Origin: Moniliella sp. 'wahieum'
Taxonomy: Eukaryota
Length of the DNA: 64,000 bases
Assembly (NCBI GenBank): GCA_003971905.1
Contig: RSEE01000007.1
Span: forward strand, 682,001-746,000
Direction: 5' to 3'
A program made the translations under genes and the position numbers. Positions 4,055-44,308 of the stretch are shown here, one piece after another. Below the pieces are notes generated by a model that saw only the letters and a program-made list of their open reading frames with translations, was not told the DNA's origin and did no database searches. The first letter of the stretch is position 1. Every line of letters begins with the position of its first letter.

Positions 4055-4808
4055 GGTGCGCGCGGCGTTGGAGATGGTGATGGAGACGGAGGCAAGACGG
4101 AGTTGGCGCTGGGGGGGCGATGGTTGATGGAGGCGACGACTGCCAGAAGACACTTGTCCGAGAGGGCGGCTATGTCACATTTCATTGTTGCATTTTGGAT
4201 CTGGCCGAGCGAGGCGGTGATCGGTGATCGGTGATCGATAATCGATAATTCGATAATCGATAATCATGAATCACGCGCACGCGTCGTGAGGCACTTGGTA
4301 TTCCCATGGAGAAGAGAGGGTTTATTAACCTCTGTTGGTCTTGTTGCGCATAACTTCTTTCATTGACCACTTTCTTCCCTTTCACGGACTGTTGTTTTCG
4401 ATACTGTGAGAGCTCCGTGCAGCATGCATGCCCATTGCTTAGGAACTCAGCAAACTCCCCTTTTGGCCCCTCAACCTATTGGAATCTCTTTCGACAAAAG
4501 AATTCTCATATGATGTGTCCGCGTTTGTATAACTTTTTTACCACTACACCTCGTCCACTTGCCCGAGCAGTTTGGGCACTTATGTCAAACGTTGGACCCA
4601 GTCTAGCCTAGAACTTGCATGGATGATCCATAACAAGACGGCCATGCTCTATAGAGGAAGAAACTGGGCAACGAACCGCGGAAGCGACGTTGTTTACTAG
4701 CCATTTCTTGTGGAGCTCATTCCTTTTGTGCTAAACAAAGAACCGCTAGCTCATTTAGCCATGCACTAACAAGTGAATCAAGTCTCACGTTGACATGCCA
4801 TAGGGGGA

Positions 4809-13595: not shown

Positions 13596-13956
13596 GGGGG
13601 AGAGAGAGTGGGCGAGGTGGTGGGCGAGGTCCGAGGTAAGCAGCCGGCCTACCCAACTAAGTGCGGCGGGTGTTGCCTCCTGGGCCCGAACGCGTCACTA
13701 CGTCAGCGGAACCACATCAGGCTGGCATTCCGCTCCCGATCACGTGTGGGGCATGTACGCATGATGCAGGCTGGGTCACCGGTCACCGGTCACCGGCCGG
13801 TCATCGATCATCGGCCATGCAATTAGCCAGCCCCAATTGAAACACGCAAACACGGTGCTCCCCAGGCAGCAGCCCCACCCACTTCGTATGAATGTAACAG
13901 AACCATCTCATCCTATCTGACGTATACACGCCGCGCCCGAGAAGGGACGACGTCAC

Positions 13957-15525
13957 TCACTTGCTTGTTCCCCCCGCCTTGCCCGAGATGTACTCAGGGC
14001 GCTCGGCATCCCGGTACTCTTGTATCACTTCCTGCACCGTCTCATGTGCCTCGTCAAACTGGGCAATGTCAAAGCCTGGCTCCTTCTTGTAGTTGTCGAG
14101 GAACGCATTCCGCTTGTACAGCAAGTCAAACTGGTCCAGTACGCGCTTAAACGTGCCAGACATGCCCGTGTGGTTCGCCAGCATCAACCCATTCACCCGA
14201 TGGCTCGAAGGGACGTAGGGGCTGCGCTTGGCCAGCGCAACCTGCACCGACGCAGGTGCCCACGGGATGAAGCAAGTCGAGTGTTTCTCCCGGATGCGAA
14301 GCAAACTTTTGTGCACCTCGCGTGGGTCCACATCGCCTTGGACGATATCCATAATCGACATGTAGCAGGCCGACTTGCTGGCACCCTGCATGCTTACCAT
14401 CCGGTTCTTTGGCTGCAATAGCCGTTGCATCACGTCCAGCACGGTTGTCTTGGTCATGGATTTGCCGCGGTCCACCGTGTCGGCAGTAAAGGGTGTGTAA
14501 GCCGTCATCAAAAAATGGCACCTTGGCGTAGGGATCAAGGAGGCCATCATTCCCACCTATATTGGAACGAGTCTCATCAGTCACCAGGTACGATCTTTCG
14601 ACCAAAGATGTAATTGGGGGAGAACGTACAAGCTGGTTGTTCATGTAGCTTGGGTATCGCAAAGTCAAAGTCGCAGCGCTCATCACCGTGCTGATCATCT
14701 GATTCATTTGAGAAAAAGGACCAACGTCAGTACGAGGGAGGCGGTAATAAAGTAATAGATTAGAAACACGCACTTGACACTAGGTTGGTGGAGGTGAAGG
14801 CGATCAGTTGCGATGCGACCAAGTGACCCGTTGTCCAGCACGACAACAGCATCGGCATTGTCGACCAGGTGTTTCATAGTCAAGGTCGCATTGTAAGGCT
14901 GAACCACAACATCCGAGTTGTCCGACATGTTGGGGAAGAGAGTAGGTTTGGATCAATGCCTTTGGGTATGCATCATTCAGGGCTTCTAGCAGATAGGACC
15001 CCAAGCCTGACCCTGTTCCACCCGCAATACTGTGGAGGAGGGTGAAGCCCTACAAGAAGGAGAAAACGAGTTAGGACCTAGCAATACTGTTGTAAATGAT
15101 CAATAGTAAGCCCGAACGCACCTCTAGACTATCGCTGCCATCGACCTCACGATCAATCATTTCGGTCAGCCCCTCGGTGATTTTCTGACCTGCAGAGTAC
15201 CCGTGAGCCCAGTTGTTGCCAGCACCGCCCCCCTCGGGAGAGATGAAGATGTTCTCAGAGTTATAAAAGTTGCGAAACGCACCGCCCGTGACGTTCTGGA
15301 TCACACGCGGCTCAAGGTCGACGAGAATGGCACGCGGCACGTAACGTTCGTCGTCGGCCTGGTAGAAAAATACGTCCTTGCGGTCGCCTGCGGTACCCTC
15401 TGTGGCAAATCCGCCAGAGTACCATCCTGGGTAATGCCATGCTCACGGCAGATCTGCTCCCAGAATGCGGCGCCAACCTGGTTGCCGCATTGGCCGGCCT
15501 GGATGGTGATGAGCTCGCGTGGCAT
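13957..15525 (-). CDS. TUB4: Gamma-tubulin
   Basis: [62 protein letters not shown] and [20 protein letters not shown]. Three introns. Confidence 0.95.
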
Positions 15526-18470: not shown

Positions 18471-21400
18471 TCAGGGCGTCCATTCCTGCTTGAGTCTCGA
18501 AGGGACAAAGCGGAGCGAAGCGAACCGCCAACGATCGAGGCTGGTACGTTGCTCCGCGCCGGCAGTGTAAATGGCCGGCACGGCGCGGGCCTTGTTCCGG
18601 CGGAGGCGGCGGGTGTGGGGGCAAGTGGTGCGACGAGGGCAGCGAGGGCGGACAAGGCGAACGCGCACGTTCTTTGCCCCACCGCGGTTTGAGCGGCGCA
18701 GTAATCTTGTTGTTCCGGATCATCTCCAGCTCCAACGAGAGCATGTAGAGGTGCTTGCCATTGGCCAACAGACGCGGACGCATCGTGCGCGCGCCCGCAC
18801 CTGCACCCGCACCCGTATGCACACGAGTACGCGCACCGCCTCCGCCCGACCCAGCACCCCCGCAGCAGGTTCCCGCTCTACTTCCGTCTTGGAGTTGCGC
18901 CGCGTCGGAGGCGGCGAGGCCGTGCCGGAGCGAAGCGAACGTGACCGCCGCACTCGTCTCGGCGCCTCGTCGGCGGCGGGGACCGTCGACGGGTCAACCA
19001 TACTCGTCGGACGGCGGCGCATGCCCTTGGATCGTCGGCGACCCGTCTCGACCGCCACCACGTCCGATCGTCGACGGCGCGGGAAAAGGTCACAAGTAGA
19101 TTCCAGCCGGCCCTCTCGCTCCTCCTCTCCTCCTGCTTCTCCTTCCCCCTCCTCCCCTTCCTCGCCCTGCTGGGTGCGGGCAGGGGTGAGGACTGGCGGC
19201 GGGTAGGAGGACAGTGTCGATCGCGCTGTGTGAGACGGCGCGAAGGTCGTTGGTGCCCAAGCGCAGAAGAAGAAGCGGACAGATCCGAGGCCAGGTTCAC
19301 CAGCCCACGCGACCGACTGTGGGTCGAACGTACCCGGTCGGCCGAAGGGGTGCGAGAACGCGAGCGGCCACGTACCGGCTCATCCTCCAGCGCAGTGCTA
19401 CGACTGGACCGCACCTCCACGCCCACCTCCACGCCCACGCCCACGCTCCCACTCGCTTCCTCCTCGTCGGGATCGGGAGGAGAGAGGAACAAGGTTTCTT
19501 CCAGCGCCAGCGCCAACGCTTCCGGGTCCAGCACATGGGTTGGGTCGGCCTCCTCGGCTGGCGGCGCCGGGACCGGGCGATGGAGACGCTTGTCTTCCGC
19601 CTCCTCTCCTCGGGGACCTCGCCCGAATGCAGCCGGTACGTCTCGAGGCACACCATGGAGGACAGCTCCACGTCGGGTCTACCGGTTCCCCAACCCGGCC
19701 ACGTAGGCCGACGCTGACGCATCCGCTTCCCAGGGCGTCATCACCCGCCCCTTGGAACTGCCAGCGGAGCGGCCTGAGCCGCTTCGCCTGCGCCGGTCCC
19801 GACGCTCCCAGCCCCATTCCAACTCCATGGCGGGGAGGGGCCGAGCGTGCGACGCCCGAGGCGTGCGCATCCTTTTCCGCCACAACGGGCGCGGCAGGCA
19901 AGCCGATCGGGGCAGGCGGAGTAAAATAATTGGGCAAGCGGGAAAATTGGCGCAGCGAAGCGGCCAACAGCCGCCCTCGTCGTCGCGGCGGTCGATCGAC
20001 GGGGACGACCGAGGGTGGAGAGGTAACCAGTACACTGTCCCTTCCGTCGCTGGCCTCTGGCAGAGCAGGTGGGAGCGGCACGTCACCGTCCAATCCTGAT
20101 CCGACCCGACCCCGACCCCGACCCCGATCCCAGCCCTCCTCGGAGATCCGTGGGCTGAGAGGGGTGGGCGTCACCGTGTCGGCATCGGAACTGGTCGAGG
20201 TGCGTCGGCTTCCTTGCAGGGTGGCGTGGAAGTTGGAAAGACGGGCGGCAAACCATTCATCGGGGGCGTGGAGGGGCTGGTGGCTCGCGAGGCGTGAGCG
20301 CCAAAGGGACGGTAGGGTTGGTTAAACCCATGCTGCAACGGGTCGTCTGACGCCTCAATCCGAATTCGCATTGGTGCCCGTGCCGTACGAGCTCAGGGCG
20401 AGGGGGAGAAACGGGATCGGTGGGGTGGGCGTGGGCGTGGTCTGGTCAAGCGAATCAGAGTCGAGCAGCTCGTCCCAAGACAGTGTCACGTCCTCTGGGA
20501 CCATATCGGGTGGGGGAGCTCGGGCAGGAGCGTCGGCCCGGGATGGCCGGCTGGATGGGCCCAAGAGAACTGCCAAGGAAGGGGAGCGAGAGGCACGGGC
20601 TTGGGCCAAAGAGCGTGCCCGGGAGGCACGATGGGGGATGGCGCGCTCAGTCGGGCAGGGGGCGAGGGAGCTCGTCGGCGGTGCTGATCAGCCTCAAGTG
20701 CAGCCAGGGCATGCACGCGTGCCCCTAGTCCCGAGCTGGAAGCATCAGAGCGCTGTACCAAGCCACGAACGTGTTGGGACAGCGTCGACCCTTGCCTGTT
20801 CTCCTCGTCCAAGGAGGGTTGCAACCCTTGGACCCTTGCCAGACGAGAGAGTGAGGGGAAGACGGATGCACATTCTCCGTCATAGCATTCAACGTAGCAC
20901 TGGCAACAGCGAGGGATACGGCCGCCCTGGGCGCGGCGGTAGCGGACAGCCGCATCCGCGCCGGAGGCGAGAGAGAAAGAGACTGTGCCGGAGAGGAACG
21001 GGCGGAGCGGCAGGAAGAGGTCGACAGGGGACTGGTACTTGCTTGGGGCAATGAAGTGTCGCCTGGCCTGTCTCGCCCTTGGCTAGGGCTTGTGCTCATC
21101 GTCTCGATGGAGCTGAGAGAGGAGCCAGACGACGACAAGGAGGCGGGCAACCCTCCAGTAGAAGGCAGGGGGGGGGGGGGGGCGGGCGAGCAGGCGTGCA
21201 GGGCCGGTGGTAGGGGCTCGGTGAGAACGGGGGCAGTCGGACTGGTGGCAAGCTTGTCCTTGGCCGAGGGGGCAGACAAGAGTCTAGGAGACAGCAAGGA
21301 TTCGTGTGGCGGGCCATGGGGGGACGGGGTGTCCTTGTGGCCACAGACCAGCGGGTGAGCGGGGGTGCAGGACATGGCCTGGTCGGAGGGGGCGGCATCA

Positions 21401-22085
21401 TCACACCTCGCACGCGTCCTGCCGCGCTTGGGCTGCAGCTTTTGCTTCTTCCGCGTCTATGCCCTTCCAGTTCTAGACTGGACGCAGTGGGGCGGAAGGG
21501 TGTGTGGACACAGCCGAGGAGGGTGGGGGGATAAGGGCGCGCGAGAGATGCTCGCTGCGGCCACGGCGAGGCGAGTGGGCAGTGCGGGAGCGACGCAGGC
21601 GCGGGATTTGAGGGCAGCGGCCAAGACGGCTTCATCAAAGCCCAAGCCCTGTTGGCGCGGGCGACTTCCATTGGCGCAGCTGGCGGGCGCCTCTGGTCGG
21701 CCGAACGGGAAGAGCAGGGTAGCGGGGAGCGATGGTGGGCACGAGATGGGGAGGACGACGGTGGGGAGGGGAGGGCGAGGAGGCAGTGGATGGCTGCGAG
21801 TCGGGATGGGGCTAGCCGTGCTGGGATGGCATGGGGGTGGGAGTGGGGGTGGGGTGGCATGGGCAGGGGCATGGGCATGGGCATGGGCATGAACATGGGC
21901 GCATGTGCTCTGCGTGGGCACGGGAGGCGGCGAAGGAGGCCGGCGGTGGGGCTGGCGGTGGCGGGGCTCGAGGGCGCCAAGGAGGGCGGAGGGCCAGCGG
22001 CGGGGGCATGGCGAGCAGCTTGTCGGGGTGGGCGGGGCAGCGCAGAGGGGATACGCCAGCGCGGCGCTGAGGGGCGGCAGCACCA
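18471..22085 (-). CDS. Long Ser/Pro/Arg-rich hypothetical protein with a conserved-looking C-terminal motif
   Basis: Chain of overlapping minus-strand ORFs ending in RLLANGKHLYMLSLELEMIRNNKITAPLKPR and then PSRLKQEWTP*. Start uncertain; many frameshifts. Confidence 0.5.
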
Positions 22086-23980
22086 TTCCCAGCGCGGCGG
22101 GCACCGTGGGGGGGAGGGCGGAGGGCGGAGGGGAACGCCAAGGACGACAGGCGGATGGCCGCCTGTCGTTTGCCAGCCAGGGCGCACGATGCGTGATGTC
22201 ATGCACCCGCGCAACCATGTGCGCCCACCCCCAACCGCATGCCTCGGCCGCCGCCTCGCATCGAGCACGCCGCCTCCAGTTCACGATTCCGGGCGCTCAC
22301 CGCTCAGCTGCTGCCATGTGTGATCCGCTGCGAGCGGGTCGCTGCCCCCGCCCGCCAGCACAGCCCCCCTGCCGTTCCTGGCGCCTGTCTTGCCTCCCAG
22401 CGTGACAGCGCCCGTCACGTGCCAGCCGCCCGCCTGTCTTCCGCCCGCGCCCTTTCCCACCGCCGGCCACTTTGGCTGCAACTGCAAAAGCTTAGCGTGT
22501 ACATCCACCCCATAGCCTCGATAACCACCCGAAATCGTAACCCCCTCGGCCCCGCCCCCCATCACCTCCGTACCACCCGCCGCACCCGACGGAGCCACCC
22601 GCCGACGGTTGCCGCAAGCTTGTTTCCTCGTCTTAGACTTGCTCGCAAGCACACTTTCCCAAACCCCATTCACCCCTTGCCCAGCGCCCATTGTCTCTCC
22701 CCCCCCTTCACCACCAAAGTCTATCCCCCGTGCCAACCCCATTCCCCGCATCGACACTCCTATGTCTCCTCGGCGCTCAGGCGCTCAGCCTCAGCCTCCC
22801 CCCACCGAAGTAAACCTTTCGTCGTGCCCAAACGCACCGGAACGATGAGCCTGCTCGCAGCCCCTGTGTTGGGTGTTCGTTTGGTTGTGTTTTATTACTT
22901 GCGCTGCCCTCACCCCTCATTCTGAGATCGATCTCGCTGTCGAACAAAAGTACTCTGTTCATAATATTATTGCGAACCCCTCTTCCGAGTTTGGAGTTTG
23001 CCTTCCCCCTGTCTTTTTTTTACGCGTCCCTTTGGTGATGCACCGGGGGCCCAGGCCTCATCATCCCTGTCTCGCGTCGCTTATCGACCCCCCGATCCCC
23101 CCGCCTTCAAACCTGATGAGGGGAGAATCCTGATCGAGGGTGCGATGTATGTATCGCAATAGGGGGCGGTTCTGATGGCAGCGGTGGTGCCAAGGCAACC
23201 AACGACGTCTGCAGGGCCATCACAGGCAGCCGGTCGCTGCCAGACCTGTCTGTGTGTGGAACGAAGGAAATAGCAAGGAGGCAGCATCGGAGCACGTCTA
23301 GAATACGCCTGGGCCTGAAAAGAGAGGGGGCCGTGGAAGGAGTTTGTGCCCTACTCCCGTAGCTCCACCAAGCGCCGGCCAAACTCTTGTAGTAGAAGAT
23401 ATACAGAGGATGGATTGCGCATGTGGGCTCTTTGGCTGCCTGCGAGACGGTTGTGTTGGAGTTGGATAGGGGGGGGGGACGCTAGCACCATAGATAACGA
23501 GACTCCAGGTATGAGGAAAAGTCAAAGAGTATTAGCCTAAAGAGCACACCTGCATATAATGCTCCGAGGGAACCAATGCCGACTATCCTAAAGTGACTAT
23601 ACGGAATAGGTTTTTGTCAACAGTGTGACGCTGCGTAGGAGATAGGGACCGAGGAGGATGCAAAGAAAATGTCGGATACTCGCTGATCGTGTATTGCTGA
23701 GTGTGCCCCATACGCAAGGGGGATGGAGCGCATTCCACAAGGTTACACTCTAATCACATCTCTCATGAAGGGACAGGGGGATGAAAGTGGGGGTGGGGTA
23801 TCATTTGCAAAAATGAGGAAGTGCACCACGGCATGGATGGAGCGGGGCAGTGGGGGGTAGGGGGGGGGGTGTATGCTGGGGTAGGCAAGGAAAGGGGAAC
23901 AGGACTGCAAAAACAGGTTCGGAGCAAAGCTGAATCGTGACGAAGGCGGGTCGTATTAGCTGCAGCCGTCTTGACACCCT

Positions 23981-24218
23981 TCAGGGTTGTGACGCGGGCG
24001 ATTGAGGGGATTGGTGAAGACTGGCATGGCAATGGCTGCAGTTGCCTGGATGGACAAGGTGCGACTCGGTTTTGCACACGGGGCACTCGATGGAGCTGTG
24101 TGGCGCATGTGATGATGCAAGATGATATGACAGGGGGGTTGTGTGCGTGTTGGTTAGCGGCATGTGGTCCGGAACCAACGCGAGATGCAAAGCAAGAAGA
24201 GAAGACGTACAAGGCCAT
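23981..24218 (-). CDS. Spliced 40-aa Cys/His microprotein MAFSIECPVCKTESHLVHPGNCSHCHASLHQSPQSPASQP
   Basis: TATAAAA at ~24322-24316, pyrimidine-rich leader and CCGCCATG start. Exon 1 24218-24211; intron 24210-24096 (GTACGT, GCTAAC, first downstream AG); exon 2 24095-23981 in frame. Confidence 0.65.
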
Positions 24219-25394
24219 GGCGGAGGAAAGAGACGGCTTGGAGAAGAGAGGCGACAAGAGGGGGAACGGAAGAAGAGGGAACACGTTCGCCACAGAAGAC
24301 AGAAACGGATGGGTGTTTTATATAACCGCGGGGGGGGAAGAGGGGCGGAGGGGGCGACGGGAAGGACCGTGTGACATGTCACATCATCGATCATCCGACA
24401 GGCGTACCTCTCTCATTCTCGCCTGAGGCCTTTTGTGGCTCCGAAGAACAAAAGGGCGTGGGGTAACAGGTAAGGCAAGGGTAACTGCGTAGAGTGAAAC
24501 GCATGGCGCTCATGCGCTCATGGCGCGCGACGGCAACCAAGCGTGTGACATGGGGATCTGGCGCGGGGCCAACATAGGCCGACATTCGCCCCTCTCGGAT
24601 CCTCGATCCCGGCTCCACCGAAGCGAAAGGGCGTTTTGCAAGCAGGCACGGCCACCCACCAAGATGGCCACGAGCGCGACTAGGTGGGACGGGTGGAGCA
24701 GCGACGTTGACGTCACCACGCGTCGCGCTCCCCGCTGTGTGGCAGCGCGGGATGGGGCCAGGCAGGCTGTGGCGCGCGCAGCACATTAATAACGCTCAGG
24801 CTGTGGGCGCTTAGCCGGCCATGCCGACACTCCGACGGAAGCGCCAGCAGAGCCCCCATGCAAGCGCGCTGGACTGCCCTGCAGTGCCGCCGTGTGGAGC
24901 GGCGCCAGTGTCCCAGCTGAAACAACGTGGCGGCGCTTCTCAGCGGCGCCGAGGCGGCCAGGAAAATAGGGCCGAGAGGGCGGCGGCGGATCATCGATCA
25001 TCGATCACTAGTCACTCGATCACGCGGATCACGACCAAGATGGGAAGCACGTAGCGCGGGTTGTGTTGCAAAGGACACGCCCCGCTGCAGAGCGCGTGAC
25101 GCGTGAGTGTGCCATGCGCATGCCACACGTCCTGTCACGCTCCCATGTCCGAGTTTCCACCGAGACGTGCGGTGCACCACACGAGGAGCGCGCCGAGTGA
25201 GTGGGGTTGCGGTCATGATGCATGAAGCATGAAGCCTGACGCCCATGAGAGATGCATTACAAAAGCACACACACCGGAGAGGCAGCCGTTCAGACGACCA
25301 AAAGACGTATGCCAACCAGACGCCAGAAGAGGGAGGAGGGAGTGTTGAGCCATCGGGTGGCTCGTGCTTTGGCCAATGTCCCTTCAGTTCCTCC

Positions 25395-25571
25395 TCAGGC
25401 CTGGGAGTTCTGTTGTTTTCTCCTCTCCTGTTTTTTCCTTGTTCCGCAGCTTAGCCCCTGGTGGTGACTCGCTGCTGGATGTTCCTCTGTAGGCGTTGAT
25501 GGTTGGCTTAGACCACCCCACCACTAGTGCGATTGCATCACTCTCGAGGGCCATCAGGACTCCAGGTCTGA
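25395..25571. mobile_element. MITE-like dispersed repeat, copy 1
   Basis: Aligns along its length with 35393-35556. Imperfect ~17-bp terminal inverted repeats TCAGGCCTGGGAGTTCTG / CAGGACTCCAGGTCTGA. Confidence 0.6.
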
Positions 25572-26218
25572 TCATGCATCAGGGAAGAATGGGAGGAGGC
25601 AGTGCAGAGATAAGCGGGCGCCTCGCCTGGAGCGGGGCGGAAGGTGATGCAGGTGCCCCTGCGTGCGTGCTGCTGATGGTTACTTGCTCCAGGCAGCTAG
25701 GTTGCTGCCCTGCCGACGTCGCCGGAGTTGGATGGCGCTACTGGCGTAAGCCGACCGCACTCGGGCGCCAGACGAGAGAGCGGGGGTGCGAGGGGAGGCA
25801 GCATAGGATTGGCCGACGCAGCCCCCGGCGGAGGGCGTGGTGTGGCGCAAGCGGGAGGAGCCTGGGGGGACACGCACGCGTGCATATGAGGGGGGCTGTC
25901 GAGGCCAGGGCGGGACAGGATCATCGATCACATGACACGGGCGGGCATGGCGCCGCTGTACCCGCAACTCCGCAGCACTCCGCAGCATGATGCAGCAGGA
26001 CGCGTGACGCGTGACGCGTGACGCAACACTACGCAGCACGCCGACTGGTGCTGGGTGCTCGCTTGCACTCGCTTGTCCCCCCGCACACTTCCCGCCCTGG
26101 CCAGTCCGCACCCCACACCTCCCCAGCACGCCCGCCTCGCCACCATCCGCATCTGTCCCATCTGTCCCACCTGCCCCATCTGCCCCCCTATACCCCACCT
26201 TGCTCGCCCCCTCCCGAC

Positions 26219-29200
26219 ATGCACTCCGACGAGCGCGACAAGCTCCTGGAAGTACTCCAGTCCCGCATTAACGCCGAATGCGTGACGTCCGAGGGCTATC
26301 GCAAAATGCGCAATGCCCATCGTGACTCCAACAATAACGACGCTCAGCGTCTAGCCGAGTCACGCCTCGCCAACAGTGACAAGAACATCGAGTCGTACGA
26401 GGAGCAGGTCCGCGAGCTCACCGCAGCTCCCGGCTCCCCGCCCAAGAAGCTCACTCCGCTTGACCCCATCAAGTACGACACGCCCCTCGGCACCGCCAAA
26501 ATCAGTCGCTTGCTCGAACTGCTAGAGTACCGGTTCCAAACCGAGATTCAGATCGCCGACGCGACCGAAAGGATGCTCAAAATAATCTGGCAGGACTCTC
26601 TCCTTCACCTGACCGCCACTTGATGCACGACACTGAGGTCAACTGCGTCGAGGCCAAGTATAAAATCCAGCTGATTGAGCGCGCCCTCGACAAGTACAAG
26701 CGCCTCCTCGTTGCCGAGGAGCCAGCACCAACAGAAAATGGTATGCATTCTCTCCTGCCCCCTCTCGCCCCCTTTTCACGTGCGAATGGTGTTGACAACG
26801 CGGGCTGCTAGCTTTGCTCGCCCAGCGCCGCGAAAACTGAAAGTTGTCGGGCACGCTCCAGATCTTCATCAAGAGGGCGCGCTATGTCGATCACCTTCCC
26901 CCTCGAGTGGGTACCACGAACGTGAGACGTGCATTACTTTGCGCAGCGACCAGGACGTCATTGCCCGTACCAGCCTCTCCCAAACCGACACGTGGGGCGA
27001 GAAATTTGAAATCCCGGTGGCAAGCGTACACGAGATTGAGCTTATCATCCACGACAACTTGTCTAATATCGCGTTCCGTGGTACTGAGAAGGCGCCCGTG
27101 GGCTTTGTCTGGATCCGGTTGGCAGATGTGGTTGACGAACAGCGTCGACTCAAGAATATTCGCTTGCGGCAGCTTATCAACCAAAGTGGCCACACTGATG
27201 GCAGCGGCACTGGCTTGTACGACATGGCATCTCTGATGGGCAACTCGCTCCAGGCTGAACCCATTACAGCCCAGTTCATAGTCGAGCCTGAAGGTGCGCT
27301 TGAGCTGACAGTCAACTTTATCAAGAGCAATGCGGCCAAGGGTCCCTATGAAGGTCCCCTAGACCGTAAAGGTGCCGTACGCAAGCAGCGTCCCGTCAGC
27401 CAGAAGGTCACGGTCATGGGTCATCTCTTTGTTAGTACGCAGTTCTACACGCTTATGCGCTGCGCCGTCTGCGGTGGCAACTTGATCAAAGAAGGATTCG
27501 AGTGCGAGCACTGTCACTTTGCCTGTCATCGCCGTTGCTTGGATGATGTATTCCCCGAGTGTGTTTCGCGCACGATCAGAGACGAAGGAAAGCCGGAAGG
27601 GGGCAACATTTTGGAGAAGTATACGATTCCTCATCGCTTCGAGCCCTTCACCAATACTGGTATGAACTGGTGCTTCCATTGCGGGCACATGCTCCCTGTT
27701 GGCCGGCGCTCGGCGCGCAAGTGCTCAGAATGTGCTGTTACAGCCCATACGCACTGCACGATTAGTATCCCGGATATGTGCGGGATCAACCCCGAGATCA
27801 TCCGTGCGCTTAAGCTTGCCCTCCCTGAGGCGCCCCGTCCTCGGCCCGAAAGGAAGGAAAAGCCGTTACCGGTACTTCAGACATTGACCCAGACCACCAC
27901 ACCGCCTGGGCCGTCTCTGGCTCTTAGTCCCACCCAGCCTTCCTCCTCCTCTGCAGTTACCAAGCCCCCTAGCGCTACCACCCCCGAAGAGCACCCGGTG
28001 CCCTACCCGCCGTTGGCAACCACACCCTCATCATCAGAATCCAATTACCCTGTCAGTTATAAGGAACAACCGACGCCCGACCACTCACCTCTAGGTGATA
28101 GCATTTCTCTTTACTCGTCCCCTTCATCAGGGCGCGAACACCCACACGGACCACAGCAAATGCCTACCAGCAACAGAGTGACTTTGCCGCCAGCCCCTCA
28201 AATTCCCGCGGCGCTTCCCGAGCCCATCCATCCCAGCCCTCCTCCCGTTTCTGCTGAACATCCTGCACCCGATCCTCAACTGGCGGTAGCACAGTCAATA
28301 CCACCCCCTACTCCGACATCGGGCCTGGACATGCCCGGGCCGAAAGGGAAGCCTGTCTCGCTGAATGACTTTGTCTTCCACAGTGTACTGGGCAAGGGCA
28401 ACTTTGGCAAGGTCATGCTGACTGAGGAGCTTGCGACGGGTGAATTGGTGGCCATCAAGGTATTGAAAAAGGCGTTTTGCATCGAAAATGACGAGGTTGT
28501 AAGTCTGCGAACCGAAAAGAGTGTGTTTCAGGTTGCTTCGCGGGAACGGCATCCGTTTTACTCAGTCTCCACTCGTGTTTTCAAACCACGACACGCATCT
28601 ACTTTGTTATGGAATACATCTCGGGCGGAGACCTGATGCTCCACATTCAAACTAAGCGGTTTTCTCGCCAGCAAATCAAGTTTTATGCTGCCGAGGTTCT
28701 CCTCGCCCTCGAGTACTTACAACACGCCCAGGGGATTGTTTACCGCGACATCAAGCTCGACAATATCCTCCTTAGCCTCGATGGTCACGTCAAGCTGGCA
28801 GATTACGGTTTGTGCAAAGAGAACGTGTGGGTTGATTCAACGACCGACACTTTTTGTGGCACCCGAGTTTATGGCACCTGAAGTACATCCCCCTCCCCCT
28901 CCTCCTTTCCCCCTCCTGCAGGAATTTTCGAATAGACACACTCTGGCTGACTCTTTCTTCTTCCGTAGATTCTTTTGGAAAAGCCCTACACACGTGCGGT
29001 GGACTGGTGGGCGTTTGGCGTCATGCTCTACGAGATGATCCTTGGTCAAGCCCCCTTCCGTGGAGACGATGAGGACGAGATTTTTGATGCGATTTGGAGG
29101 ATGAACCGCTTTTCCCGCTTCAGATGCCGGGACACAGCGTGCCATTGCTGATGAAACTACTCGAGCGCGACCCAAAGAAGCGGTTGGGAGCCGGGCCGGA

Positions 29201-38018: not shown

Positions 38019-39060
38019 TCAATGCTTGCCGCCGGCCTTGATCATGTCCAAGAACGAGTCTTTCGACGCAAGACTCTTTTTCGTCCCTGGTGCTAGCGGG
38101 GGCTTTCCCATAACACTCCGCACCAGTCCAGACGTCTCCTCCTCCTCTGGAGGGGCAGCCGCTTGGCGCTGGGAGTCACGGATGACATTGAACAGCTTAA
38201 CGACACCACGTTGTGCCACTTTGCGTACCGCTTCTCGTACCCACCCGAACCACCTTGGTCATCCCAGGCGGCTAGAGCGTCATCATCCAAAGGACTGCAC
38301 CCAGCGCAGGAGTAAGGGCGCCATCATAATTGACCACCTGCCCTGGTGGACCCCAAGAAGAGATGATGTCCTTTACATGGGTCAATTCAAAAGCCTTCTT
38401 GCGCTCGGCTACCAGCTCCCGTTCCGCCTTCGAAGCAAGTGATGCCTTGGCGCCTGCACGATTGATGTGCGGAGCAAGAGCAAGGATGGGTCCCTGGGTC
38501 GAAGTAGTTTGTGCAGAAGGGGAAGAGACTCGAGCACGCTTCGCTGGCTGCGCAGGCACTTCGTGCGCTTCATCCTCCTCAACCTGCGAATCGGGGTCGT
38601 CTGTCTCACTACCCTGGTCAGAAAACGGCTGCGACCCTTCCTCGTCTTCGTGGGCTAGAGCCACGGGCATTGGCGCGGACGACCCGAGAAGGTCGAGAAG
38701 AGTGGCACCAAAAGCGGTCGGAGACACAGCGCGGCGTTTACGTTCTGGCAACATGATGGGGTTAGTGGTGTAAATTTAACACGTAGTAGGTGAGTGGTGA
38801 AAGCATACTCTGGGTTTTCTTGCTCTTAGGGGCAGCATGGGCGCACGAATTTCGTCCTCCGTGTCTGGTTCCGACTCGCTCTCGGACGCGCTGGAGTCGG
38901 AATCGGCATCGTTGTCGCTAGCAGGGTTCCGTTGTGGGGGCGGCCGGCGGCCAAGGGTGGAAGATGGCCTGGACGGAGGGCCAGCGCGCATGGAAAACTT
39001 CGACTTTGGTTTGGGCCTGTCACCAGTGGGGTGTGAAGAGCTGGGGTGGGGCTTGGCCAT
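38019..39060 (-). CDS. RRP15: Rrp15 ribosome biogenesis protein
   Basis: C-terminal YEKR..KVAQRGVVKLFNVIR and SKDSFLDMIKAG are diagnostic of Rrp15. Probable intron ~38808-38760. Confidence 0.85.
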
Positions 39061-40822: not shown

Positions 40823-42425
40823 GAGTATTCCCGGCCAACTAGATCCCCACCCTGCATTATATGTTCAAACTCGATTTAAGCAACACTGCCGTAGTAACGA
40901 TATCTTGCAAAGCCCAAAAGTATGGCACAATCATCCGTCAAAGTCTCTGCCTAAATGTGACCATCGTTATGCGACGTTATAGCGCATTTAGTTGGCTGAA
41001 CCAGCGAGCAGGTCATCGAAGTCTTCGAGGGATCCAACAGCTGGAGAAAAGGGTATGCCACCACGTCAGCCCTCCTCTCTAGTAGTAGGGACGAAAAAAA
41101 AACACCAGATCATATGTCAATCATTCGACATCATCAATCACAGTGAGCTGCATGAGCAAGAGAGTGGATTATAGTAGGCCTGGTTTTCGACCAGATAATA
41201 TGTGTATACCAAGCCGATGAGTCTCCTACCGTGGCAGATATCTAGATCATCAACCACCATTCCCATATGTTGGTCCAATGGCGTTCCATGACTTCACAAC
41301 CTTGGCTTCCAGCCTCAATATATCTTTTCGATCTTCGAGGAGGGACCCTAAAGCCTGGGCTATAGTACTGCGGCGCCACACTTTTTGATGATTGGGATCG
41401 CAGAAAAGCAAACAAGACAAGCAGGACGAGGTACTCAACGTGGAGCTTCGCTTCGATTTGAATACCACTGGTGCGTATATATAGTGTGCCTCGTATATCT
41501 TGACATATCTCGTCTCTCAGAATCTCTGGCCTCTCATGCTCAGGTGCTCAGGCTAGGCCTTGTGGTCCTATAGTACTACGACCTTGTTTTTCAGTGGTCG
41601 TCTCCAACATGTATGTCATTGATGTCACTTGTCACACGTATATCGGTCAGCAAAAAAGAGAGCAGGCCAGACCTCCTCCCCGCTTGTCAGTCTCAGTGCC
41701 TCAAACTTGCCCCCATCATCGACATCATCTGCATCATCGACAGCCCTCACACGCTCTTTTCTTGATATAAGTTGGTCTTGGATCAATGATTTTATTATTG
41801 GCATTGAGCGCATTGTGTGTGTGTGGAATATGCGTTTTTAAGTATCTCTGCCGATGCACTTGAGTCGCACACCTCTCCCCGCCGGAACGGTCATCAGAGC
41901 AACATGGGCCTCTAGCCGGACTGTCACATGTTACCGAAGGATCGCTACTCTCAGCTGTGCTGTTACATGTTCATGTTGTTGGACGAGAAATCAGTGGGGG
42001 CGTTTCTTGTATATTGTGGAGTGCGCGATCCTTGGGTCCGATCTCTGGAGATCTGGGTTGGCCCGAGACACCAACAGGGTACTGTCCTAGACACGATGAT
42101 CGATGATCGATGAACGCCACAGTCTAAGTTGAAGGCTGTTCAAAACTCATTATGCATTATGGACCTTGCCTTACTAGTACTATCACCGCCACCACCACCA
42201 CCACAACCACCACCATCACCTCGACCTTTGCGGATCCACTCCGGGTCCAACAACCCCACACACCGCAGCCATTTCTGGATTTATTTTGCTCATCCCACAA
42301 TACCTCCGTCCTCGCTGTGTGTTCTCTTCTTACACTCACTCTCAGAGGGCCAAGGATACATATCCCTTCCTCTTTCGTACCCCTCTATCTCTGCTTCACT
42401 CCTCGTCTGCCAATTCATCCCCATA

Positions 42426-44308
42426 ATGTGAGTTCCACACCTCGGTCGCATAATGCCGCGCGATGTTGGTAGGAAACTGACTGTGGCTGCATTACCAAGT
42501 TTTCGTTATGGGAGGCAAGGCGTGCAACATACAACGATCTTGTCGGCAAACGCATTGCAGGCGACCGACTCGAGTTTGTCTCCATCATTGGACTCGGCGC
42601 GTATGGAGTAGTTTATTTGGCTCGCGATCTGAAGCACCCACTGCATTCTTTTCAAGAACCTTGGACGTCCACTTCCATCCAAACAATGCCCCATGGCGCT
42701 GCTGCTGCAACAGGATTGTACGCTGTCAAATGCCTACACCGCTTGGGTCTAGACGCTCGCCAGCACCTTTTCCAACAGCGGAGATTGCCCTACACAATCT
42801 GGCAGGCGCCTACCCATCCGTGGTTACTCTTTATGAGGTACTTCAAGATGCTAGTTGCATTTACGTCATTATGGACTTTTGTCCCGACGGAGATCTCTTC
42901 TCCATGATCACAGAGAAACATCGGTATTCCGTACAAGGGACAAATCTACCGGGGTCGTCTTCCTCCCACGTGATGGCACGTTTCGTGGTTGAGGACGACG
43001 AGTATGTGGCAGCGAGGACTGAGATGGATGCCACCATCAAGGATGTCTTTGGGCAGATTGTTCAAGCCGTCGAATATTGCCATGGTCTTGGAATTTACCA
43101 CCGTGACCTCAAGCCCGAGAATATCTTATGCTTGGAAGGTGGCTCGCGAATCATGCTTGCTGATTTTGGTTTAGCCACGACGGACAAGAACAGTTCAGAT
43201 TTTGGTTGCGGGTCAACATTCTACATGGGGCCCGAATGTCGTGGTGGCATCCTTAGCCGACCCAGCTTTTACGACTCATCAGCCAACGACGTATGGAGCA
43301 TGGGCGTTATCTTGGTCAATCTGGTGTGTGGGCGCAACCCATGGAAGCAAGCAACGGCGTCGGACGAGACCTTCCAGGAGTTTTTGCGTAACCCTGACTT
43401 CCTTATGGAGATCCTACCTATCTCGAACTCTCAACGCGATCCTTAAGCGCATTTTCTCCCCCTTCCCTGAAGCACGGTGTTCTATCCATGAGGTCAACGC
43501 CCTTCTACGCGGATGTGATCGATTGACTGCAACTAATGCTGAGTTGTTGGCACGACATGAAGCGCGACGAGAAACACACCAGCGGGCTCAAGTTGCTCGT
43601 ACACATGTTGCTGAAAAAGACACCATTTTCCCAATAAGTGGTTCTCATGATCAGAAAAAACAGCTGCTTGTCACGCGAAAACACCTTGCAACCCCCTCCT
43701 ATCACGATCATGGAACCACCCATGCAAGTCCTTCTGCTCGTTCACGCTTTTTCTTCAATCAAGGGCATACACACGCAGCTCAATCTAATCGGTCCATTCG
43801 CCACCATAAGGCAAAGAGCGTGGGCATTGACTCCACCCGAAATCCTTTCGGGAACGTTCATTCCTTCTCTTCGTCTTCTTCGATACATACACGCCGCAAT
43901 TCTTTCTCTCAGTCAAAATGCACAAACGGGGGAGCACCGGCTGGTAATACACCACCGTGTAACGGTTTGATTTCAACCACGGATGATTCCTCCCAAGAGG
44001 TTCTTTCAGACAAAGCTACGGTTGACTCGTCAAAGAACTTCGGGTCCTCTTCTACTGCTCCTACTTCACATTCATCGTCCATTAAATCGTCGGTGCCCAG
44101 CCCTGACACGCTAGCACATTTGCCGCGTATGGGCAAACAAGACAAAGACGCTGTTGCATGTCCTACTTTGGACTCGCTCTACGGTTTCCCAACTGACAAA
44201 ACCGGTTCCCAAGTTAGATCCGCCCTTTATACCCTGGATCAAGCTGCTATAAATGACGGTCACTACGTATTCCACTACCCTCCCTCCGACTGGGGTTGTG
44301 GTGTATGA
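42426..44308 (+). CDS. Ran1/Pat1 (Sks1/Vhs1)-like Ser/Thr kinase with Ser-rich tail
   Basis: LEFVSIIGLGAYGVVYLA, YAVKCL, EIALH, DGDLFSMITE, IYHRDLKPENIL, DFGCGSTFYMGPEC and NDVWSMGVILVNLVCGRNPWKQA. Confidence 0.9.

Follow-up and report, generated by a model that had tools for sequence, protein, structure and literature searches.

Upstream of PKC1 in a fungus related to the smuts: a candidate spliced gene for a zinc-ribbon-like microprotein

Does the gap upstream of the PKC1-like gene in a 64,000-nucleotide (nt) stretch of the Moniliella sp. 'wahieum' genome (contig RSEE01000007.1, positions 682,001 to 746,000; the window hereafter) hold a small spliced gene for a zinc-ribbon-like peptide? A preliminary description of this DNA had proposed one on the minus strand, and we followed the proposal up computationally. 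We consider a real small minus-strand gene for a zinc-ribbon-like orphan peptide of 40 residues plausible, and we hold this reading tentatively. It draws its support from start signals that are hard to get by chance, combined with a four-cysteine (C4) motif that we estimate to occur in only ~0.1–0.3% of arbitrary 40-codon frames (an estimate based on ~8 loci that match by chance among 125,037 residues).

The locus and its start signals

The candidate lies in a gap of ~3.9 kb (roughly 22300-26200), upstream of and divergent from the PKC1-like gene, which runs on the plus strand from an ATG at 26219 and encodes HR1, C1 and kinase domains. The TATA box, the pyrimidine-rich leader, the 8-nt first exon, the 115-nt intron and the in-frame second exon that had been described are all present there. 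Read on the minus strand, the features are as follows; the counts and simulations given below refer to the window, and to both strands where stated.

24317..24324, minus strand: TATA box TATATAAA, from sequence reading
24219..24316, minus strand: pyrimidine-rich leader, 98 nt, 78.6% C+T, without ATG
24223-24214, minus strand: exact start context CCGCCATGGC, with the ATG at 24218-24216
24211..24218, minus strand: coding part of exon 1, eight bases ATGGCCTT (ATG plus five)
24096..24210, minus strand: predicted intron of 115 nt, with a GTACGT donor at 24210-24205, a GCTAAC branch motif at 24158-24153 and the AG at 24097-24096
23981..24095, minus strand: exon 2, coding part: completion of the Phe codon, 37 further codons and a TGA stop at 23983-23981
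24029..24085, minus strand: CxxC-x11-CxxC motif, CPVC...CSHC, from the translation of exon 2

The leader would hold the presumed transcription start, whose position is predicted, and the 5' untranslated region. The acceptor AG is the first one past the GCTAAC branch motif, and splicing there puts the ATG into the sole frame that bears the C4 motif. Exon 2 is then in frame with the ATG (TT from exon 1 joined to C) and reads SIECPVCKTESHLVHPGNCSHCHASLHQSPQSPASQP, a peptide with the four Cys, five His and CxxC-x11-CxxC spacing that had been claimed for it; the spliced product has 40 residues. Without splicing, the frame from the same ATG stays open for 151 codons and ends at 23763, and an ATG inside the intron opens a 60-codon frame that includes exon 2. 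A second AG is found at 24086-24085 (minus strand), 11 nt past the predicted acceptor and in a poor GAG context; splicing at this AG would lead into the third frame and a 45-codon product ending ...EGCQDGCS, the other C-terminus to which the preliminary description had pointed.

How often would such signals meet by chance? Three sites in the 64 kb (both strands) match TATAWAAR, against 0.64 expected, and at least three were reached in 4 of 100 shuffles; another of the three stands 71 nt upstream of the gamma-tubulin ATG. The start context CCGCCATGGC, with at most one mismatch, occurs 21 times against 10.0 expected, a count that 0 of 100 shuffles reached, and three of its sites are exact. The other two exact sites are the starts of a pyrophosphatase gene (9315), where a 57-nt intron is followed downstream by the inorganic pyrophosphatase domain (PF00719), and of an Rrp15-like gene (39060), with Rrp15p-matching open reading frames (ORFs; PF07890) downstream, so that the context is indeed one used by neighbouring genes. 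Furthermore, the string ATG-N5-GTACGT is found twice in the window against 0.20 expected.

Farther upstream stand two more elements.

24384..24393, plus strand: single exact copy of TCATCGATCA, 166-175 nt upstream of the candidate ATG
24368..24382, minus strand: 12-bp perfect palindrome GTGACATGTCAC (24382-24371), overlapping one copy of CATGTCACACG, beside TCATCGATCA

With at most one mismatch, TCATCGATCA has 15 sites in the window against 3.29 expected, and 0 of 100 shuffles reached 15; it is likely a binding site for a transcription factor, although a putative one. Other exact copies stand upstream of the ATGs of Rpn3 (205 nt), PKC1 (298 nt) and a kinase gene (~320 nt), and the candidate's copy lies ~60 nt further upstream than its TATA box. 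The preliminary description had placed an array of this element ~170 bp upstream; the element is there, as one exact copy and not as an array. The 11-mer CATGTCACACG is exact at two window sites only, both upstream of the candidate (the second at 24552-24542, minus strand), and it may, with the palindrome, form a further binding site. When the literature was searched for the TCATCGATCA string, the titles among the matches listed were unrelated and look like hits to primer strings.

These results point to promoter and start signals that are not random, and their likeness in architecture to validated neighbouring genes is likewise supported. The signals and their statistical excess are there to be counted. 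The non-random part is the conjunction of a rare TATA box, an exact start context and the promoter-associated TCATCGATCA; the intron pattern alone and the cysteine motif alone are not unusual.

Across the window, TCATCGATCA sites lie at 4218-4270, 13801-13810, 24384-24393, 24991-25007, 25921-25930 and 42097-42113, often in tandem with a 7-nt period; the copies at 24991-25007 and 42097-42113 are tandem, and those at 4218-4241 are degenerate. The tandem pair at 24991-25007 stands mid-gap, at a distance of 775 nt from the ATG of the candidate and of 1.2 kb from that of PKC1; no gene is evident nearby, and the pair may belong to a further unannotated transcript or to a long leader of PKC1. On the far side of the gap, the region 20000-22300 is very rich in GC (as much as 75%), with G in strong excess on the plus strand; its minus strand carries long overlapping Pro/Ala/His-rich frames, perhaps a low-complexity gene, that match no Pfam family.

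The predicted peptide

Does the peptide look like a protein? Queries and models were made with the exon-2 stretch (37 of the 40 residues) and with the unspliced frames, in place of the full spliced peptide. In the Atlas language model, the exon-2 peptide has a recognition value of 2513; the mark of 2300 is reached by 91 of 100 known proteins and by 9 of 100 shuffled ones, and the value says nothing on whether a gene is real. AlphaFold2, run on the single sequence of the exon-2 peptide, gave a mean predicted local distance difference test score (pLDDT) of 70.8, with ~80 over the first 20 residues, and a model of one short strand and one helix, compared with a pLDDT of 55.8 for one 41-codon C4 ORF, a chance frame on the strand opposite the RhoGEF gene (n = 1). 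To both programs the exon-2 peptide looks protein-like, in contrast to the unspliced frame or the one chance control, which we take as weak support.

If the gene is real, we infer its transcription, splicing, translation, zinc binding and role from the sequence as follows. A small unannotated RNA polymerase II gene, lineage-specific as far as visible, would occupy the gap upstream of the PKC1-like gene, and the TATA box and TCATCGATCA element would set its transcription start within the pyrimidine-rich leader. The first AUG would stand in an optimal CCGCCAUGG context, with the 115-nt intron following after 8 nt, and the spliced mRNA would be translated into the 40-residue peptide. The peptide's four cysteines form two CxxC knuckles with 11 residues between them and would together bind one Zn(II); the resulting zinc-ribbon-like mini-domain would lead into a polar and probably disordered tail. 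The Zn(Cys)4 site would be structural and the peptide a small binding module for a partner; we prefer a binding module to a metallothionein-type metal store because each chain would have one site. The promoter would be of the TATA type and therefore probably regulated. A more far-reaching proposal, that this TATA-driven, stress- or metal-regulated Cys4/His5 peptide represents a fungal microprotein of a new kind, with a role in zinc handling or in regulation, unrelated to metallothioneins or annotated families and hidden by its size and by an intron 8 nt past its start, seems to us quite improbable.

Weighing the gene against its rivals

Several observations weigh against the gene, and we give them here together with the explanations that compete with it. 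Could the promoter and transcript be real and the product something else, namely a non-coding or regulatory RNA, a functionless short ORF, or the product of an indel or of another acceptor, such as the AG 11 nt downstream? We find this doubtful, though it is a serious competitor, since strong gene-start signals are accompanied by neutral coding statistics and no homologue was found. A codon log-likelihood was trained on 3,479 codons from Pfam-confirmed ORFs of the window. Exon 2 scores −0.4, a value exceeded by 88% of 37-codon windows from true coding sequence (mean 7.5, standard deviation (sd) 7.0; off-frame windows average −10 to −13). Moreover, 36% of stop-free windows from the non-coding region 22300-26000 reach −0.4 (mean −2.6, sd 5.3). 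The synonymous-only score of exon 2 is 2.05, with a coding mean of 2.7 (sd 3.7) and a null mean of −0.8 (sd 4.8), and 17–27% of null windows reach it. Taken together, the codon statistics are neutral, as expected for 37 Cys/His-rich codons; the second half of the peptide is of low complexity and uses less favoured codons, which also favours another product. Against another product speak the rarity of a C4 motif in an arbitrary frame, the optimal start context, which suggests selection for translation, and the recognition of the exon-2 peptide by the language model.

The indel form of this alternative gains from the state of the assembly, and the earlier warning that a frameshift could change the C-terminus was well founded, as conserved genes of the window carry several. 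The pyrophosphatase domain PF00719 (8344-9162, minus strand) is spread over four overlapping ORFs in different frames (profile positions 1-20, 17-48, 46-111 and 102-152), which makes three frameshifts within ~600 nt; the tubulin domain of gamma-tubulin (15122-15525, minus strand) runs over two frames with one frameshift; and the HR1 region of PKC1 changes frame at least once, near 26590-26630 (plus strand). These breaks look like homopolymer indel errors of the assembly, and at least two resemble lost bases in homopolymer runs when judged by the conserved protein sequences. Exon 2 contains an A4 and a C4 run, the type of run at which the neighbouring genes appear broken. Frameshifts being frequent and such runs being present, the exon-2 frame, above all at the C-terminus, may be wrong. 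Two further irregularities were seen in the window: at 42425-42432 (plus strand) the kinase gene reads ATGTGAGT where ATG followed by GTGAGT is expected, and either a frameshift or a short intron divides the Pfam domain of the Rrp15-like gene (38022-39060, minus strand) over two frames (profile positions 13-72 and 82-140). The apparent indel errors call for careful reading of the ORFs of the whole window.

Is there a gene at all? On the opposing account, the features form a chance constellation in a C-rich intergenic or PKC1 upstream region, and TCATCGATCA and the TATA box serve other transcripts. The locus had been picked after a scan of the whole window. A loose composite (TATA[AT]A with the first ATG 40-200 nt further on and then a GTRNGT donor within 42 nt) was found at 1 of 12 TATA-plus-first-ATG sites, and it occurs at least once in 20.5% of 200 simulated windows. 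Strict triples of GTRNGT, CTAAC and first AG number 11, against 7.6 ± 3.1 in simulations. Pyrimidine-rich tracts number 10 in the window, several of them within genes, and so are not specific to leaders. The minus strand is C-rich here, and open frames come cheap on it, as the 151-codon unspliced frame illustrates. Similarly, the pattern CxxC-x5-30-CxxC matches 13 times in the six-frame translation, with ~3 of the matches in real zinc-binding domains: two are the C1 domains of PKC1, one is probably the N-terminal exon of a predicted NMD3, and the rest apparently arose by chance. On the other hand, ~0.3 exact copies of the 10-nt start context are expected by composition (an estimate) and three are seen, the other two at gene starts; TATA boxes are very rare in the window; and the TCATCGATCA element lies at a distance typical of validated genes. 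With these signals in the balance, we regard the absence of any gene as rather unlikely, yet as an explanation to be taken seriously. A scan for bacterial promoters and terminators, which is not relevant to a fungus, found nothing.

The geometry of the intron also favours chance. As a yardstick we used three introns that had been validated through sequence reading, Pfam and alignment with orthologues; for a census of introns, two heuristic finders that draw on the coding potential of the flanks gave too much noise.

13351-13288: Rpn3 intron, 64 nt, from tblastn with the Tilletiaria orthologue
9200-9144: pyrophosphatase intron, 57 nt
15121-15050: gamma-tubulin intron, 72 nt

The validated introns have a CTGAC or CTAAC branch motif 13-20 nt before the AG. 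The candidate intron has a perfect GTACGT donor and a perfect branch motif; its length is 115 nt and its distance from branch A to AG 57 nt, compared with 57-72 nt and 13-20 nt in the three validated introns. It is thus a possible but atypical intron. A position close to the start is as such not unusual in the window, where the kinase gene at 42425 apparently has an intron right after its ATG.

Homology searches gave the proposed gene no relatives. A phmmer search of 1,835,955,588 representative proteins with the exon-2 peptide found no homologue; the single match at E ≤ 0.001, a 289-residue repeat protein without cysteines, was regarded as spurious. The word-index search returned 24 candidates for the 151-codon frame, none of which scored, and no candidate for the 60-codon frame. 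Scanning metagenome contigs with the 60-codon frame gave pattern matches, none encoding a relative, and a scan with the PKC1 N-terminus and 10-kb flanks, in which a syntenic copy was sought, likewise led to no encoded relative. In Pfam, the best family was HMBD (PF19335) at 16.6 bits, below its cut-off of 23.6 and with a best stretch of 8 aligned residues; the zinc ribbons Zn_ribbon_TFIIB (10.6 bits, cut-off 22) and Zn_ribbon_4 (10.6 bits, cut-off 30.3) also stayed below theirs, and zinc-ribbon clusters of the Atlas scored 0.86–0.87, below the lead level of 0.9. Fold searches were insignificant (Foldseek E = 9.9; VIA-align Z ≤ 2.7). Within the window, tblastn with the exon-2 peptide found no paralogue, the best non-self match being low-complexity sequence at 23.5 bits, and Rfam at E ≤ 1 over 20000-28000 found no RNA family at the locus and one sub-threshold match to a long non-coding RNA elsewhere.

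How much do the missing homologues tell? We consider them weak evidence, because 40-codon spliced genes are rarely annotated, 37 residues give low power, and the nearest annotated genome belongs to another genus. The window's Rpn3 ORF shares 80% identity with its counterpart in Tilletiaria anomala UBC 951 and 88–92% with proteins of other assemblies, which agrees with the basidiomycete origin suggested earlier; by these sequences, the host is a basidiomycete of the Ustilaginomycotina, near Tilletiaria. The prediction that annotation would probably miss the gene is consistent with there being no such protein in the protein collections searched. The window's own Rpn3 has no identical protein among the matches listed, so that the annotation of this genome apparently lies outside the protein collection.

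That the intron is retained, the same ATG then giving a 151-residue Pro/Ser/Cys-rich and perhaps secreted protein ending at 23763, is highly improbable: the frame is open through the putative intron and its first 17 residues are hydrophobic and by eye like a signal peptide, but its codon log-likelihood is −8.4 against ~+30 expected if coding (−3.4 against ~+22 over the 110 codons past the acceptor), its Atlas recognition of 908 is far under 2300, it has no Pfam family and no homologue by word-index search, and a strand rich in C can be expected to carry open frames.

If the zinc-ribbon-like gene is real, it would be a spliced eukaryotic microprotein gene invisible to standard annotation and a minimal single-site zinc module without known relatives; its peptide could be synthesised for studies of zinc-ribbon folding, and the locus could serve as a marker when small genes are sought in fungi related to the smuts. 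If it is not, the locus would show that TATA, start-context and intron signals can come together with a C4 motif where a strand is rich in C, and that ORF-level claims in an error-prone assembly need polishing first. Pending a spliced transcript or conserved cysteines, the candidate is of modest interest.

Comparison with known systems

Where would such a peptide belong? Fungal metallothioneins are small Cys peptides, often TATA-driven and metal-induced, with a high share of Cys in CxC or CC clusters. The candidate peptide has only 4 Cys in its 40 residues, as two CxxC pairs and with neither CxC nor CC, and the metallothionein assignment was rejected; among the literature matches listed, there was no specific metallothionein report for Ustilago. 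Basidiomycete lipopeptide pheromone precursors end in a C-terminal CAAX box, and this assignment was rejected as well, as the frames here end ...ASQP, ...DGCS and ...PVPS, none of them CAAX. A third assignment, to heme c, arose from CSHCH, which fits CxxCH, and from cytochrome c subunits among the sequence matches in the PDB (E = 1.5); it was dismissed as a match of pattern only.

The PDB sequence match that ranked best was an amino-group carrier protein of the LysW type (5k2m_E), which has an (I/V)ECPVC knuckle in common with the candidate. The match is insignificant (E = 0.17, 15.5 bits), the family is prokaryotic and the remaining sequence is unrelated. No chain of the type of the RNA polymerase subunit Rpb12 was among the PDB sequence matches at E ≤ 10. 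HMBD, a heavy-metal-binding domain and the best Pfam family, shares a short ...PG.C..C... knuckle pattern with the peptide, below the membership cut-off. In structure, the AlphaFold2 model superposes over 30–37 residues on small zinc-binding ribosomal proteins and on zinc-ribbon and B-box mini-domains (5xxu_d, 8q87_AG, 9fhl_P; CsfB 5n7y_C), with Z of only 2.0–2.7, values that are common for unrelated small chains, and without a sequence match; the candidate, with one Lys and no Arg, is unlike ribosomal proteins. The generic C4 zinc-ribbon pattern (two CxxC with a spacer of at least ~10 residues) is present in the peptide, as it is at ~8 chance places in the six-frame translation, and the curated zinc-ribbon families gave no significant match. 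As to the beta-hairpin knuckle fold of this class, the AlphaFold2 model has one short strand and one helix.

A literature search found no fungal zinc-ribbon microprotein. The nearest likeness in the way such a peptide would work is with the one-domain zinc-finger micro-proteins of haloarchaea, such as the C(P)XCG proteins of Haloferax volcanii and Brz of Halobacterium (PMC6562870, PMC11241148, PMC10716476, PMC2253796). As the available parts of these papers describe them, the haloarchaeal proteins (<70 residues) resemble the candidate in consisting essentially of one module with two CxxC knuckles and a single predicted zinc ion. They differ in belonging to another domain of life, in having unspliced genes and in showing no sequence similarity to the candidate, whose motifs CPVCK and CSHCH both lack the following Gly and so fall outside the C(P)XCG definition. 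According to one of the abstracts, several haloarchaeal micro-proteins of this type do not bind zinc, and the motif alone therefore proves nothing. By analogy, then, the candidate would resemble the haloarchaeal one-domain micro-proteins and the zinc-ribbon mini-domains in its working, while standing outside every curated family tested, and, if real, it would add a new and so far orphan peptide to the small C4 zinc-binding peptides, a broad class.

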